NCBI GenBank assembly: GCA_021162125.1
Contig: JAGGZG010000348.1
Span: 1-41,388, forward strand
Direction of reading: 5' to 3'
Length of the DNA stretch: 41,388 nt
Source of the DNA: Anaerolineae bacterium
Lineage (GTDB): Bacteria > Chloroflexota > Anaerolineae > JACIWR01
A model generated the notes under the pieces. The model saw nothing but the letters and a program-made list of their open reading frames with translations, was not told the origin of the DNA and made no database searches. Made by a program: the position numbers and the translations under genes. This document shows, piece after piece, positions 3,214 through 41,370 of this stretch (within the stretch, counting starts at the first letter, position 1; every line of letters begins with the position of its first letter).

Positions 3214-3680
3214 AGTGGCGCGGACTCGAGGTGTGCGTCAGTTTTGGGGCGAGTTTGCGCCCTGTAGGGGCGACCGGCCGGTCGCCCCATGGGTATCAAG
3301 TTAAGGCCGTGGCTTGGGGAAAGCCCTCCCGAAAGCTCGCCGGCCGGCCCCGCCTGGGGCTCAAAGCCCCGGACTGAGCGGCCCCAGGGTGCTAAGCACC
3401 CTCCGCTAGTGCATTGTAGATTGTAGCGTCGGGGCTTGCCCCCGACGCCTGCGTCGCCCGCAAGGGGCGACGCTACTGGCTCAGCCCTGAGCTTTAGCTC
3501 GGGGTGGCCGGGCTGTCTGCTCTCGACGTAAGCCTTAACTTGATGCGTATAGGGCGCAGCACGCTGCGGCCCTGCGGCGGGACTCAGGATAAGCCCTGTC
3601 CGCCGTAGGCCGACACTGCGGTCGGCCGCTACGGGACAAACCTGCCCCCAAACTGAAGCGCAGCGCGGACTCGCCCCCAC
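3214..3680. repeat. About 470-bp composite inverted-repeat, hairpin-rich non-coding element
   Basis: The left arm (3236-3306, GCGTCAGTTTTGGGGCGAGTTTGCGCCCTGTAGGGGCGACCGG...ATCAAGTTAAGGC) resembles the reverse complement of the right arm (3531-3660, GCCTTAACTTGAT...CCGTAGGCCGAC...GCCCCCAAACTGAAGC). It contains the perfect palindrome GGGGCGACCGGCCGGTCGCCCC at 3267-3288 and at least 5 further GC hairpins. No credible ORF. Confidence 0.55.
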
Positions 3681-3709
3681 TTCCGCTTTCGGGGAGATTG
3701 TGGTATAAT
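3681..3709 (+). promoter_or_regulatory. Candidate ftsK promoter with extended -10 (TGgTATAAT)
   Basis: TATAAT at 3704-3709 is preceded by TGG at 3701-3703. Weak -35 TTCCGC lies 17 nt upstream. AGGAG RBS at about 3723 and ATG at 3740. Confidence 0.5.
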
Positions 3710-3739: not shown

Positions 3740-5980
3740 ATGACCAAGCGAAAGCGAGTGACTCGAAAGAAGCGAAGACGAAGACAGAAGCGCCCCGTGC
3801 CGGTGATCCAGCTCAGCCCTGCCCTCCAGGCCGAGATCGCGGGCATTGTCCTGTTGGGATTAGCCGTGCTCACCATCCTCAGCATGCTTCCCTTTGGCCG
3901 GGGGATGCTCACCACGGGCTGGTTAACCCTGCTGCGCGCCATGTTCGGCTGGGGGGCATACGTGTCCTTCATCGGCATGGCAGCGGCGGGTGTGTGGCTG
4001 CTGCGCAAGGGGATGGATCGCGATCTTCCCCTGCGCTGGGAGCGCGTGACGGGCATCGGCCTGCTGTTCATCTTGGTCCTGTCCCTGATCCACTTGTTGG
4101 CCGGCGCCGAAGACCCATTGGCCCTGGCCGATGCGGGCGGCGGCGGGGGTTACCTGGGCTGGATGGTAAGCCAGCTCGTGGTCTCGGCTACGGGGCGCAT
4201 CGGAGGGCTCGTCGTCATCCTGACGATGATGACCGTGACTCTCATCCTGCTATTGGGCGTCTCCCTCAGCGAGGTAGTCCCGGCCCTGCGACAGGGCTGG
4301 CAGCGGTTATTGGCCCTGCGCGATGCTCGCTTCCGGCCGATGACCATCCGCCGGAATGGAGTCACGGAGCAACGCGGCACGCCCTTAGCCTCGCCGCCGT
4401 CACCCACCCCATCCTCGCGCCAACCCACCCGCCAGCCAGAACCGCCGTCCGCGCCGGCTGGACCGCTCCTCCCACCGGTGATCATCGGCGGGCAACAGGA
4501 GTGGCAACTGCCCCCAGTAGACGAGATACTCGAAGAAAGCACCGAGCAGGAGATGAGCCAGGCGGAGATCCGGGCGCGGGCGCGTCTGATCGAGGAGACC
4601 CTGACCAGCCTGGGCGTGCCGGTCCGCGTGGTGGAGGTCAATCAGGGGCCGGTGATTACTCAGTTCGGGGTGGAGCCTGGCTTCGTGGATGGGCGAGGCG
4701 GCCGGCGCACCAGAGTCAAGGTGCGCAAAATCCAGGCCCTGGCCGATGACCTGGCGCTGGCATTGGCCGCCGCGCCGGTACGCATCGAAGCGCCGGTGCC
4801 CGGTCGCTCCATCGTTGGCATCGAGGTGCCTAATGCGGAGATATCCCTGGTCTCCCTGCGCAGCGTGATGGGCACCGAAGTTTTCCAGAAGATGCCCTCC
4901 AAACTCAAGCTGGCCCTGGGGCAGAACGTATCGGGGCAACCGGTGGTGGCCGATCTGGCGACCATGCCCCACCTGCTCATCGCCGGAGCAACGGGCTCGG
5001 GCAAGTCGGTGTGCATCAACTCCATCGTCACCTGCCTGCTGTGCAACAATACCCCCGACGACCTGCGGCTAATCATGGTGGACCCCAAGCGCGTCGAGTT
5101 GACCAACTTCAACGGCATCCCCCACCTGATGGCTCCGGTGGTGGTGGACCTAGAGCGGGTAGTGGGCACGCTGCGCTGGGTCGTTCGTGAGATGGACCAG
5201 CGATACAGGAAGTTCGCCAGCGTTGGGGCGCGCAACATCGAGGATTACAACCAGCGGATGGCGGCCGAGGGCGAGCACATGCCCTGCATCGTGGTCGTCA
5301 TTGACGAGCTGGCCGACCTGATGATGCTGGCCCCGGACGAGGTGGAGCGGGCGGTGTGTCGCATTGCCCAGATGTCCCGTGCCACTGGCATTCACCTGAT
5401 CATCGCCACCCAGCGACCCAGCGTGGACGTGGTCACCGGCCTGATCAAGGCCAACTTCCCGGCACGGATCAGTTTCGCCGTCACCAGCCAGGTGGACTCG
5501 CGGGTGATCCTGGACATGGGTGGCGCGGAACGGCTGTTGGGTCGGGGCGACATGCTGTACATGGCTTCGGACAGGGCCTCGCCCATGCGTCTGCAAGGCT
5601 GCTTCGTCTCTGACCGGGAGCTTAACCGTCTGGTGCGCTACTGGAAAGGCGCACGTACTGCGGAGGTGCCCGATCTGGAATCGGCCCGCCCGGAGGACTT
5701 CGTCCAGCGGCCGCTGTGGGAGGAGATGCGCGAGAAAGCGACACGGGCTCATCGGGAGGACGACCTGCTGGAGCGGGCCATCGAGGTGGTGCGCCAGGCC
5801 AACCGGGCTTCGATTTCGCTGCTGCAACGCAAGCTGCGCATCGGGTACTCCCGCGCCGCGAGGTTGATTGACCTGCTGGAGGAGAAAGGCTACGTGGGGC
5901 CGCCCCAGGGCGGCAGCCGTGCCCGCGAGGTGTTGCTGCCTCCTGAGGACGAGGCAGGCGCTACGCGCCCACACCGATAA
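3740..5980 (+). CDS. ftsK: DNA translocase FtsK/SpoIIIE
   Basis: 746 aa: basic N-terminus, 4 TM helices and a Pro-rich linker. The motor domain has Walker A GATGSGKS and Walker B VVVIDELAD. C-terminal winged-helix gamma domain (ISLLQRKLRIGYSRAARLIDLLEEKGYVG). Confidence 0.95.
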   Translation: MTKRKRVTRKKRRRRQKRPVPVIQLSPALQAEIAGIVLLGLAVLTILSMLPFGRGMLTTGWLTLLRAMFGWGAYVSFIGMAAAGVWLLRKGMDRDLPLRWERVTGIGLLFILVLSLIHLLAGAEDPLALADAGGGGGYLGWMVSQLVVSATGRIGGLVVILTMMTVTLILLLGVSLSEVVPALRQGWQRLLALRDARFRPMTIRRNGVTEQRGTPLASPPSPTPSSRQPTRQPEPPSAPAGPLLPPVIIGGQQEWQLPPVDEILEESTEQEMSQAEIRARARLIEETLTSLGVPVRVVEVNQGPVITQFGVEPGFVDGRGGRRTRVKVRKIQALADDLALALAAAPVRIEAPVPGRSIVGIEVPNAEISLVSLRSVMGTEVFQKMPSKLKLALGQNVSGQPVVADLATMPHLLIAGATGSGKSVCINSIVTCLLCNNTPDDLRLIMVDPKRVELTNFNGIPHLMAPVVVDLERVVGTLRWVVREMDQRYRKFASVGARNIEDYNQRMAAEGEHMPCIVVVIDELADLMMLAPDEVERAVCRIAQMSRATGIHLIIATQRPSVDVVTGLIKANFPARISFAVTSQVDSRVILDMGGAERLLGRGDMLYMASDRASPMRLQGCFVSDRELNRLVRYWKGARTAEVPDLESARPEDFVQRPLWEEMREKATRAHREDDLLERAIEVVRQANRASISLLQRKLRIGYSRAARLIDLLEEKGYVGPPQGGSRAREVLLPPEDEAGATRPHR

Positions 5981-37732: not shown

Positions 37733-38236
37733 ATGAAACTGGGCCGTTCGTTGAATCTCTGCATTGCACTCGCTTCCTTGATTCTGGCCGGATGTCTCAC
37801 CCCGCCACCTTCATTGCCCCCATCGCCAGCGGACTTCACACCGACGCCGGATGCAGCACAAGCCATCGCCGAGTTGATCGCCACACATCGGGCCGCGGTG
37901 GTCGCCGACGACGTTCAAGGCCTACTCGACATCTGGGCGGAGGACGGCGTGATCCGCGATGCCAATCACACACCCGATGATCCCACCGATGACCATGTGT
38001 GGCGTGGGCTGGATGCGGTCCTCTCGTATTACACCACCATTCTCTTTCCGCTCTATCTCAATGAGGTAGGCCCCGTGGATACCGCCCTGACGATCAAAGG
38101 GCCTGAAGCAGTGATGACGGGCACAACGAAGATCGGTGATGAACTCTCACCCCGTGGAGAACAGTGGACTTTCGCTTTCCGAGATGGGAAATGGAAGATC
38201 ACCGGAATGACCTTCAACCTGGAACCCCGTCGCTGA
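37733..38236 (+). CDS. Lipoprotein with NTF2/SnoaL-like (DUF4440-like) domain
   Basis: Signal peptide with lipobox LILAGC. The mature part AIAELIATHRAAVVADDVQGLLDIWAEDGVIRD ... WTFAFRDGKWKITGMTF resembles the NTF2-like fold. Confidence 0.6.
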   Translation: MKLGRSLNLCIALASLILAGCLTPPPSLPPSPADFTPTPDAAQAIAELIATHRAAVVADDVQGLLDIWAEDGVIRDANHTPDDPTDDHVWRGLDAVLSYYTTILFPLYLNEVGPVDTALTIKGPEAVMTGTTKIGDELSPRGEQWTFAFRDGKWKITGMTFNLEPRR

Positions 38237-38299
38237 GAGGGCTGAGGGCAGGGGCGCAATAAGTTGGCGCTATCCCCGGGGGAAAAGGAATACGTCTCC

Positions 38300-38328
38300 T
38301 TGCATCAGACAGCGCTTTGCGATATAAT
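38300..38328 (+). promoter_or_regulatory. Near-consensus promoter TTGCAT-N17-TATAAT (presumed comEA promoter, now separated from comEA by an inserted element)
   Basis: TTGCAT 38300-38305, 17-nt spacer, TATAAT 38323-38328. Confidence 0.6.
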
Positions 38329-38523
38329 CAGTACTTGAGAAAAGTCGGTGCTGCTGCCGCGTCGCCTGGACGTGAACGTCCAGGCTGAGCGGGCGAAGAG
38401 TGCTGAAGCACCCTTTGCCAATGTGGACGGCGGCTCCGAGGCCACCACAGCCTGCTTCAGCAGGCTTCTGCTGCTGAGCCTGGCGCTTCAGCGCCGGGCG
38501 GGGGGCGGATTTCTCAACTACTG
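38329..38523. mobile_element. 195-bp palindromic MITE-like element with 14-bp terminal inverted repeats and a 5-bp ATAAT target-site duplication
   Basis: TIRs are CAGTACTTGAGAAA (38329-38342) and TTTCTCAACTACTG (38510-38523), 13/14 complementary. They are flanked by ATAAT at 38324-38328 and 38524-38528. Four internal hairpins have UGAA/UGAA/UUCA/UUCA loops (38364-38385, 38397-38414, 38449-38466, 38478-38499). No coding capacity. Confidence 0.65.
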
Positions 38524-38578
38524 ATAATGGGCCAAACGCGGGAGACAACGTGCCTCGTCGCTTTCAGGAGGGGGGGAG

Positions 38579-39193
38579 ATGAGCGACTGGCTACAGCGGT
38601 ATCGGGGTTACATTCTGATCACCCTGGTTTACCTGCTCATCAGTGGAGGTATGGTCCTCTTCTTGCGCCGCCCTGCCCCGCCAGCCATCGTCATCACCAC
38701 TCCGACTTCCACGCCTCTCCCGGAACCCACGGTGACTCCCACTCCAGCGCCGCTACGGGTGTACGTCACTGGCGCGGTCGTCCATCCCGATGTGTACCTG
38801 CTAGCGACAGGCAGCATCATCCGTGATGCGCTCGTCGCTGCCGGCGGAGCCACCAGCAACGCCGATCTCAACCGCATCAACTTGGCTCAGCAGGTGTACG
38901 ACCAACAGCAGATTTACGTCCCCCGGCTCGGCGAGGAGAATCCGCCAATCCCTCTGCCAGCCCCCCTGCCGTCAACCACCTCCAGCAGTGTGCAGCCCAC
39001 GGGCAAGGTGAACATCAACACCGCTACCGCCGAAGAACTTGATACCCTGCCGGGCATCGGGCCAGCCATCGCCCAACGGATCATCGAATATCGCCAGGCC
39101 AACGGCCCCTTCCAGTCCATCGAAGAGATCAAAAACGTATCCGGCATCGGGGACAAGCTCTTTGAACGGCTCAAAGACCTGATCACAGTGTGA
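38579..39193 (+). CDS. comEA: Competence protein ComEA (SLBB + helix-hairpin-helix DNA receptor)
   Basis: 204 aa: N-terminal TM anchor, SLBB-like VYVTGAVVHPDVYLLATGSIIRDALVAAGG, C-terminal VNINTATAEELDTLPGIGPAIAQRIIEYRQANGPFQSIEEIKNVSGIG. AGGAGGGGGG RBS. Confidence 0.9.
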   Translation: MSDWLQRYRGYILITLVYLLISGGMVLFLRRPAPPAIVITTPTSTPLPEPTVTPTPAPLRVYVTGAVVHPDVYLLATGSIIRDALVAAGGATSNADLNRINLAQQVYDQQQIYVPRLGEENPPIPLPAPLPSTTSSSVQPTGKVNINTATAEELDTLPGIGPAIAQRIIEYRQANGPFQSIEEIKNVSGIGDKLFERLKDLITV

Positions 39194-39998: not shown

Positions 39999-41255
39999 TT
40001 GAGACTTGCGGAACGCATGTACCAACTCAAGGCCGAGGGTGCTTACGAGATGCTGGCCCGCGCCCAGGCACTGGAATCGCAGGGGCGCGAGATCATTCAC
40101 CTGGAGATTGGACAGCCCGACTTTGACACTGTGCCCAGCGCGGCACTGGCCGGCATCCGCGCCATCGCCACCGGCCTGACCCGTTACAACCCGCCATTGG
40201 GCATCCCCACCCTGCGCGCTGCCGTCGCCACGGAAATCAGCCGCACGCGAGGGGTAGAGGTCGGGCCGCAGAACGTGGTCATCATGCCCGGTGGAAAACC
40301 GGGGATTTTCTTCCCCATGCTAGCTCTGGTCGAACCCGGCGACGAGGTGATTTACCCCGACCCCGGCTTCCCCACCTACGAGTCGGTAACCCGTTTCCTG
40401 GGAGCAGTGCCTCGCCCGGTGCCGTTGCTGGAGGAAAACGACTTCAGCTTCGACATGGTGGCCTTCGAGCAGTCACTCTCGGATCGGACGCGGCTCATCA
40501 TCCTTAACTCACCGTCCAATCCCACCGGCAGCATCATCCCCCGGCAGGACCTGGAGCGCATCGCCGAGGCCGCACGATCCCGCGATGCCTGGGTGCTGAG
40601 CGACGAAATTTACTCGCGGCTGGTATACGACGGCGAGCACGAGAGCATCATCTCGCTGCCGGGCATGCTGGAGCGCACCGTATTGCTAGACGGCTTCAGC
40701 AAGACCTACGCGATGACCGGCTGGCGGCTGGGGTACGGGGTGATGCCCGCCGAAGTTGCCGAGGCCATGGGGCCACTGTTGACCCACTCGGTTGGCTGCA
40801 CGGCGACGTTCACCCAGTACGCGGGGCTGGCAGCTCTCACCGGCCCGCAGGACGCGGTAGACAGGATGATCGCGCAGTTCCGGCTGCGCCGGGATGCTAT
40901 CGTGGAGGGGCTGAACGCCATATCCGGCATCACCTGCCAGAAGCCTCAGGGTGCGTTCTACGCCTTCCCCAACATGAAATCCTTTGGCAAAACCTCGGCG
41001 GAGATGGCAGCCTACCTGCTGGATCAGGCCGGGGTCGCCGTGCTGCCTGGCACGGCTTTTGGGCGGTATGGGGAGGGGTATCTGCGCCTCTCGTACGCCA
41101 ATTCGCTGGAGAACATTGAGCGGGCGCTGGTGAGGATAGGGGACGCACTGGAGAGATTGGGGCAAAAAAAGAGGCGCGCCTGGAGGGACTCGAACCCCCA
41201 GCCTACTGATTCGAAGTCAGCCGCTCTGTCCATTGAGCTACAGGCGCGGGATTAA
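39999..41255 (+). CDS. Class I/II pyridoxal-phosphate aminotransferase (aspartate aminotransferase-like); the 3' end runs antisense through tRNA-Arg
   Basis: NSPSNPTG, the PLP-lysine context FSKTYAMTGWRLGY, and RLSYA. TTG start 6 nt after GGAGG. There is no in-frame stop until TAA 41253-41255, so the last ~27 codons are the antisense of the tRNA (..RDSNPQPTDSK..). Confidence 0.85.
   Translation: MRLAERMYQLKAEGAYEMLARAQALESQGREIIHLEIGQPDFDTVPSAALAGIRAIATGLTRYNPPLGIPTLRAAVATEISRTRGVEVGPQNVVIMPGGKPGIFFPMLALVEPGDEVIYPDPGFPTYESVTRFLGAVPRPVPLLEENDFSFDMVAFEQSLSDRTRLIILNSPSNPTGSIIPRQDLERIAEAARSRDAWVLSDEIYSRLVYDGEHESIISLPGMLERTVLLDGFSKTYAMTGWRLGYGVMPAEVAEAMGPLLTHSVGCTATFTQYAGLAALTGPQDAVDRMIAQFRLRRDAIVEGLNAISGITCQKPQGAFYAFPNMKSFGKTSAEMAAYLLDQAGVAVLPGTAFGRYGEGYLRLSYANSLENIERALVRIGDALERLGQKKRRAWRDSNPQPTDSKSAALSIELQARD
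41175..41247 (-). tRNA. tRNA-Arg (anticodon UCG)
   Basis: Hand-folded cloverleaf: acceptor GCGCCTG/CAGGCGC, D arm GCTC..GAGC, anticodon stem GCTGA/TCAGT with loop CTTCGAA, T arm GGGGG-TTCGAGT-CCCTC, discriminator G. The 3' CCA is not fully encoded (CCT). Confidence 0.88.
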
Positions 41256-41292: not shown

Positions 41293-41370
41293 TGGGGTGA
41301 GCGGTGGGATTCGAACCCACGTTCTTCTGGGCCACAACCAGATGCCTTAGACCACTCGGCTACGCTCACC
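41293..41370 (-). tRNA. tRNA-His (anticodon GUG) with encoded G-1 and encoded CCA
   Basis: 8-bp acceptor GGTGAGCG/CGCTCACC including G-1:C73, anticodon loop TTGTGGC, T arm GTGGG-TTCGAAT-CCCAC, followed by CCA. Confidence 0.88.

Follow-up and report, generated by a model that had tools for sequence, protein, structure and literature searches.

The described systems closest to the element reported here include the Correia elements (CREE/NEMIS) of Neisseria, which are short, non-coding and multi-copy, carry terminal inverted repeats, insert near genes and are co-transcribed as stable hairpins. Correia elements duplicate TA on insertion, can change promoter function and are RNase III substrates. 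Non-autonomous elements also include RUP of Streptococcus pneumoniae and further MITEs that IS630/Tc1-mariner transposases mobilise, a group defined by a TA-only duplication, and TIMEs, which derive from Tn3 and show a 5-bp target duplication. Many IS630/Tc1 ends begin CAGT, while the ends of the Tn3 family are ~38 bp in length and begin GGGG. REPINs/BIMEs consist of an inverted pair of hairpin modules and are intergenic and high in copy number.

We analysed a 41,388-nt stretch of DNA (the window) from an Anaerolineae bacterium (GCA_021162125.1, contig JAGGZG010000348.1, positions 1-41,388, forward strand), which covers a ribosomal-protein, rpoA, secY and rpoB region. We interpret positions 38329-38523, with a probability of about 0.93, as a MITE copy in the -10 box of comEA, that is, as a cut-and-paste DNA transposon derivative of 195 bp that is non-coding and non-autonomous. 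The features of the locus are as follows.

38300-38305, + strand, -35-like hexamer TTGCAT of the native comEA promoter (read directly)
38323-38328, + strand, -10 hexamer TATAAT (read directly; a single TATAAT followed by GGGCC in the empty site of L011-L013)
38324-38328, + strand, ATAAT, left copy of the target-site duplication, being the last five bases of the -10 box (read directly)
38329-38523, no strand assigned, MITE body of 195 bp (absent from L011-L019; copies at 42 further loci)
38329-38342, + strand, left terminal inverted repeat CAGTACTTGAGAAA of 14 nt (read directly; repeat search)
38364-38385, no strand assigned, hairpin 1, a 9-bp stem GCCTGGACG/CGTCCAGGC with loop TGAA (predicted fold)
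38392-38419, no strand assigned, hairpin 2, GGCGAAGAGTGC-TGAA-GCACCCTTTGCC (predicted fold)
38449-38466, no strand assigned, hairpin 3, AGCCTGC-TTCA-GCAGGCT (predicted fold)
38478-38499, no strand assigned, hairpin 4, GCCTGGCGC-TTCA-GCGCCGGGC (predicted fold)
38510-38523, - strand, right terminal inverted repeat, TTTCTCAACTACTG on the + strand and CAGTAGTTGAGAAA on the - strand (read directly; repeat search)
38524-38528, + strand, ATAAT, right copy of the target-site duplication (read directly; empty-site comparison)
38529-38578, + strand, native comEA leader (directly after TATAAT in empty sites)
38566-38571, + strand, AGGAGG, ribosome-binding site (read directly)
38579-39193, + strand, comEA coding sequence of 204 aa with ATG at 38579 (Pfam SLBB 5.7e-12, HHH_3 7.5e-26)

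An earlier reading made from the letters of the window (the sequence-only reading) had named the downstream gene comEA, and the domain content agrees: the product combines SLBB with a C-terminal helix-hairpin-helix (HHH_3), the architecture of ComEA in Pfam, and the public annotation of 38579-39193 is a ComEA family DNA-binding protein of an Anaerolineae MAG. The -35-like TTGCAT was left unflagged by a consensus promoter scanner, since only three of its six positions agree with TTGACA. TTGCAT and its 17-nt spacer are kept at the comEA loci of relatives whose upstream genes differ. The comEA promoter including the spacer (TTGCAT...GCGCTTTGC.GTATAAT) is unusually conserved among L011, L014, L015 and L017, which have 66-96% ComEA identity and different upstream genes, and the spacer might hold an operator.

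The empty sites found in relatives carry the main argument. Three contigs of one close relative (L011, L012 and L013; ComEA 96% identical, same gene order) lack the element and display the predicted empty site, TTGCAT-N17-TATAAT followed by GGGCCAAACG. Their junction reads ...TTGCATCAGACGGCGCTTTGCAGTATAAT/GGGCCAAACGCGGGAG..., with TTGCATCAGACGGCGCTTTGCAGTATAAT running directly into GGGCCAAACGCGGGAGACAACG..., and equals the window minus 38329-38528, which is the 195-bp element and one ATAAT. The compact locus that the sequence-only reading had obtained by removing the element and one ATAAT is exactly the one present in these contigs. The only difference between the leader at 38529-38578 and the empty sites is a single G in the run of Gs that precedes the ATG. 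Outgroup comEA loci with 88%, 82% and 66% ComEA identity (L014, L015/16 and L017-19, respectively) are also empty, and they retain TTGCAT-N17-TATAAT although their upstream genes differ. The element is therefore a derived 200-bp insertion in the -10 box of a conserved promoter, in agreement with the sequence-only reading. As far as comparison of these loci goes, the insertion into the ATAAT of the comEA -10 box is shown to postdate the split from the relative with 96% identical ComEA. All ten contigs encoding the identical ComEA carry the element; they are up to 69.7 kb long and derive from several samples and assemblers. Among the strain variants of the comEA-locus copy, L007 lacks 88 nt of the interior (window 38432-38519), while L004 and L005 have lost the TGA at ~38522-38524 that spans the element end and the right ATAAT. 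This 3-nt loss across the right end would probably render the copy in L004 and L005 immobile.

The ends of the element are complementary at 13 of 14 positions, with a single mismatch, and the ATAAT copies that flank them are 200 bp apart. Allowing up to 2 mismatches, the 14-mer end occurs at only these two places in the 41-kb window, in which 0.09 matches would be expected, and none of 100 shuffles contained two or more matches. The near-perfect inverted ends described by the sequence-only reading are thus confirmed, and no further copy of the element was found elsewhere in the window. The interior comprises four GC-rich hairpins, each with a TGAA or TTCA loop, the left pair being an imperfect inverted copy of the right. 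Over 55 nt, the internal arms (38363-38417 and 38446-38500) show 71% complementarity. The stem of hairpin 2 is a perfect 12 bp in the copies of L021 and L034. The RNA of the + strand is predicted to fold at -115.9 kcal/mol (z = -7.7), in line with the very stable structure proposed earlier, and that of the - strand at -99.2 kcal/mol (z = -5.8); strong folding of both strands is expected of any palindromic DNA. The sole ORF of the element is 58 aa in length, and a 58-aa protein has been annotated within it (window 38348-38524) by gene callers in several public assemblies. Judging from the other copies, this protein is spurious, because they carry 1- and 2-nt indels that would break the frame.

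To determine how widely the element is distributed, we searched species-representative genomes and JGI metagenomes with the exact 20-mer of its left end, so that all counts given here are lower bounds. Beyond the window copy, 42 real loci were identified in this way in metagenomes and one MAG, with 91-99% identity to it. The species-representative genomes contributed one real copy, from an uncultured MAG, and one chance match, and the JGI metagenomes 43 stretches with the 20-mer, one of them a chance match. L020 and L023 (Aminicenantes, GC 0.34) were rejected as copies, as they match at the 20-mer only and within coding sequence, and are considered chance matches. The copies have ~33 distinct left flanks and lie in both orientations, so that the element is multi-copy and dispersed, as the sequence-only reading had anticipated. 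Many copies are at contig ends, and copies cut in this way are the usual sign of an assembly-breaking repeat. Contigs with a copy have GC contents between 0.51 and 0.64, most of them falling at 0.57-0.64 and one at 0.51, compared with 0.596 for the window. We infer that all copies belong to one genome, solely from their co-occurrence in the same samples and their GC content.

Complete copies have a matching pentamer on both sides that varies by site, supporting the earlier claim that the ATAAT pair of the window is a target-site duplication. These include ACAAT (L036), ATAAT (L034, L046, L058, L060 and the window), AGTAT (L039, L061), ATACT (L049) and ATTAT (L031/32, L033). The target is a symmetric A-N-W-N-T, and the pentamers also occur as reverse complements, except for AGTAT's and ATAAT's own partners. 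The pentamer nearly always starts with A and finishes with T, so the sites agree equally well with a duplication of 3 bp and element ends T-CAG...CTG-A, and one copy (L056, GTTAT...ATTAT) is better suited to a 3-bp than to a 5-bp duplication. Two loci with discordant flanks were set aside as chimeras: L021, with ATAAT...ATTAT, which would have counted against a duplication, has its left flank from L034 and its right flank from L033, and L009, with a different left flank, joins that of L054 to comEA. Flank chimeras of this kind would be expected where a repeat misleads assembly. In L053 (2139-2429), two 195-bp copies are arranged head to tail with one common ATAAT; since the duplication re-creates the target, tandem insertions of this kind are possible. 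No complete copy was found clearly interrupting a long ORF when stop-to-stop ORFs were considered, a comparison confounded by the stop codons that the target itself contains. For mobilisation, a transposase encoded elsewhere would bind the ~14-bp terminal inverted repeats and make a staggered cut at an A-N-W-N-T pentamer, which repair would then duplicate. In the lineage of the window, the pentamer entered was the ATAAT of the comEA -10 box.

The two halves of the element raised the question of selection on structure. The sequence-only reading had matched the left two-hairpin module (38364-38414) to the reverse complement of the right (38449-38499) at ~35 of 51 positions, with compensatory stem differences taken as a sign of selection. 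Our position-by-position comparison gives 36 of 51, and four stem pairs are altered at both partners, the outer hairpins having ACG/CGT against CGC/GCG and the inner ones G-C against C-G, so that this part of the claim stands. The proposal of selection on structure is not supported. When 22 copies were aligned, 98% of cells paired as predicted, a proportion not exceeding that of shuffles; covariation likewise did not rise above the shuffled controls, with one double change only, the copies being too young for a selection test. Invariance of the left repeat among these copies is uninformative, all having been retrieved with a 20-mer that contains it. Loops are flipped between TGAA and TTCA with unchanged stems in hairpins 1 and 3 of L004 (at the comEA locus) and in hairpin 3 of L039:4854-5048, which suggests intrastrand template switching at the palindromes (hairpin-templated mutation). 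Because template switching copies one arm onto the other, compensatory changes arise from it with no need of selection. The two halves have genuine compensatory differences, but these are no proof of selection on RNA or cruciform structure.

Both the -35 and the -10 are retained after insertion. As the upstream TTGCAT-N17-TATAAT is intact, transcription would start inside the left repeat and then read through the element, and the comEA mRNA would gain 200 nt of 5′ UTR, which would fold autonomously as a four-hairpin domain closed by the terminal repeats. When 38335-38600 is folded as a whole, the closed domain predicted for the isolated element is recovered, and the native leader and ribosome-binding site have the same predicted local fold with and without the element. 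A scan of 38150-38700 predicted neither terminator-like sites nor new promoters, and the downstream ATAAT copy (GATAAT) is without a -35 partner, having GGGGGG at that place. Our best guess from these models is that comEA would still be expressed from its old promoter, with mRNA stability or yield modulated at most, rather than silenced. Silencing or attenuation of comEA, which the sequence-only reading had considered, is not supported by these predictions.

On 7 of 50 flank sides of the family's copies the duplication could serve as a -10 core, having a -35-like hexamer 16-18 nt away, compared with 2.6% of all occurrences of the target motif (binomial P ~3e-4), a control not restricted to intergenic sequence. 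Survival bias alone could explain this excess of promoter-splitting insertions. We consider it unlikely that, with an A-T-W-A-T target equivalent to the -10 core, the element repeatedly enters promoters, regenerates the upstream -10 and puts the same structured ~195-nt leader on unrelated genes. If this were true, it would create a MITE-borne, post-transcriptionally co-regulated gene set, for example via RNase III or a UGAA/UUCA-loop-binding protein. The locus is a clean, dated example of a recently inserted MITE separating a conserved promoter from its gene in an uncultured Anaerolineae, and closely related natural populations with and without the insertion form a natural experiment on its effect at a competence gene. 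The repeat family also accounts for assembly breaks and chimeras at ~30 places in the assemblies of this organism.

The position of the segment between promoter and ribosome-binding site, together with its very stable fold, would also suit a dedicated cis-regulatory leader RNA (riboswitch, attenuator or thermosensor) native to the comEA locus. However, the element is missing at every orthologous comEA locus examined (96%, 88%, 82% and 66% identity), occurs at ~33 unrelated sites in both orientations, and shows neither an Rfam match nor covariation. Conservation upstream of comEA in relatives, which the sequence-only reading had named as evidence against a mobile insertion, is absent, the orthologous loci being empty. 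Empty sites and dispersed copies together refute a leader RNA, the probability of which is negligible. A stand-alone small RNA gene (6S-like, for example) with its own promoter, lying merely upstream of comEA, would account for the TTGCAT-N17-TATAAT directly before the element and for the paired ends, which close a rod-like domain of ~190 nt. It is nevertheless highly improbable: the promoter is the native comEA promoter, present in relatives without the element, copies lie in both orientations relative to promoter-like flanks, and no 6S or other family matched even at E<10. At gathering thresholds Rfam identified only two tRNAs in the whole window, and at E<10 only sub-threshold hairpins in 38200-38650 (451 nt), the best being Acido-Lenti-1 with 19 bits against a threshold of 37; 6S RNA, riboswitches and other known RNAs were rejected on these scans.

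Chimeric flanks are known around this repeat (L009, L021), which might make an assembly artefact or chimeric join at the comEA locus seem plausible. The same junctions on both sides are however present in independent assemblies from several samples and pipelines, in contigs of up to 69.7 kb, leaving an artefact with next to no probability. A REP/REPIN-type palindrome, in which two inverted REP modules are mobilised by a RAYT (Y1 transposase) and not by a DDE transposase, would explain the two inverted halves, each made of short GC-rich hairpins, and the related hairpin modules in other elements of the same metagenomes. We regard it as very unlikely, since complete copies have terminal inverted repeats and site-specific flanking duplications, and REP and REPIN elements are not known to make such duplications; nor was a RAYT gene seen in the window or the fetched loci in a non-exhaustive search.

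Further palindromic elements were observed in the same material. A second type of MITE, 91 bp in length (L058:618-708), has the same class of ends (CAGTACTTGGGAAAAGTGAGGAGC.../...GCTCCTCAAATTCTCAGCTACTG) and a different interior, carries ATTAT on both sides and has a predicted fold of -52 kcal/mol (z = -7.4). It lies in tandem with a 195-bp copy (L058:418-612), one ATTAT being common to both. Sequence 84-88% similar to the core of the 91-bp MITE is present at ~12990-13050 in L001-L003, ~200 nt past the end of the window. A diverged relative of the 195-bp interior (~68%) was identified at L039:5164-5302, L012:30-164 and L038:8085-8211, with closer copies of its own at 84% and 75%; these genomes therefore harbour several related elements built of palindromic modules. 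Within the window, the region 3380-3700 upstream of an ftsK-like gene (ATG at 3740) is hairpin-rich, with several GC-rich palindromes, and is overlapped only by a 233-aa ORF without a Pfam match. It includes a 26-nt stretch (3479-3504) with a 96% match to the L039-type element, and may be a decayed relative. The two tRNA genes found by Rfam are on the - strand at 41175-41247 and 41296-41369. Because the former overlaps the 3′ end of a long aminotransferase ORF (418 aa; 382-388 aa in public annotation), this ORF is over-extended.

The absence of a transposase from the window, noted by the sequence-only reading as the mark of a non-autonomous element, is consistent with our Pfam search, in which no ORF of at least 220 aa in the window matched a transposase family. 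The fetched loci contain transposase genes of IS701-like, IS481-like, IS4-like and IS110-type. The IS481-like (TGTAATTCC...) and IS4-like (CTGATTGG...) ends are unlike those of the element, and no matching repeat was found near the IS701-like and IS110-type genes. A distant pair of the element's terminal repeats, as an autonomous partner would have, was not found among the fetched loci. L037, L024 and L040 were rejected as a longer parent element, being a copy truncated at position 132 beside toxin-antitoxin-like genes. BLAST searches of plasmid and phage collections returned no similar DNA, and we found no description of such an element in Chloroflexi in the literature. Duplications of 5 bp are made by IS1634, IS1380, ISH3, the IS2 group and Tn3, and 3-bp TWA-like duplications by IS5 and Harbinger relatives. 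We take the element ends beginning CAGT to recall IS630/Tc1, whose TA-only duplication is not seen here, and we assign the element to no family.

Compared with the known systems, the element is most readily set beside Correia elements, being likewise short, non-coding and multi-copy, with terminal inverted repeats and insertion near genes, and being predicted to be co-transcribed as stable hairpins. It has no sequence similarity to them, however, no promoter is predicted at its junctions, and in place of TA it duplicates ANWNT (or NWN), in some cases without TA (ACAAT, ATTGT). It shares non-autonomy with RUP and the other IS630/Tc1-mariner MITEs but lacks their defining TA-only duplication, the variable duplicated positions co-varying over at least 3 bp. 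TIMEs are similarly non-autonomous with a 5-bp target duplication; their ~38-bp GGGG ends contrast with the 14-bp repeats starting CAGTAC of the window element. REPINs/BIMEs resemble it in being intergenic, high in copy number and built of two inverted hairpin modules, and differ from it in that the window element has terminal inverted repeats and flanking duplications. The element belongs to a MITE family that none of the libraries searched contains, and biologically it is of a familiar kind.
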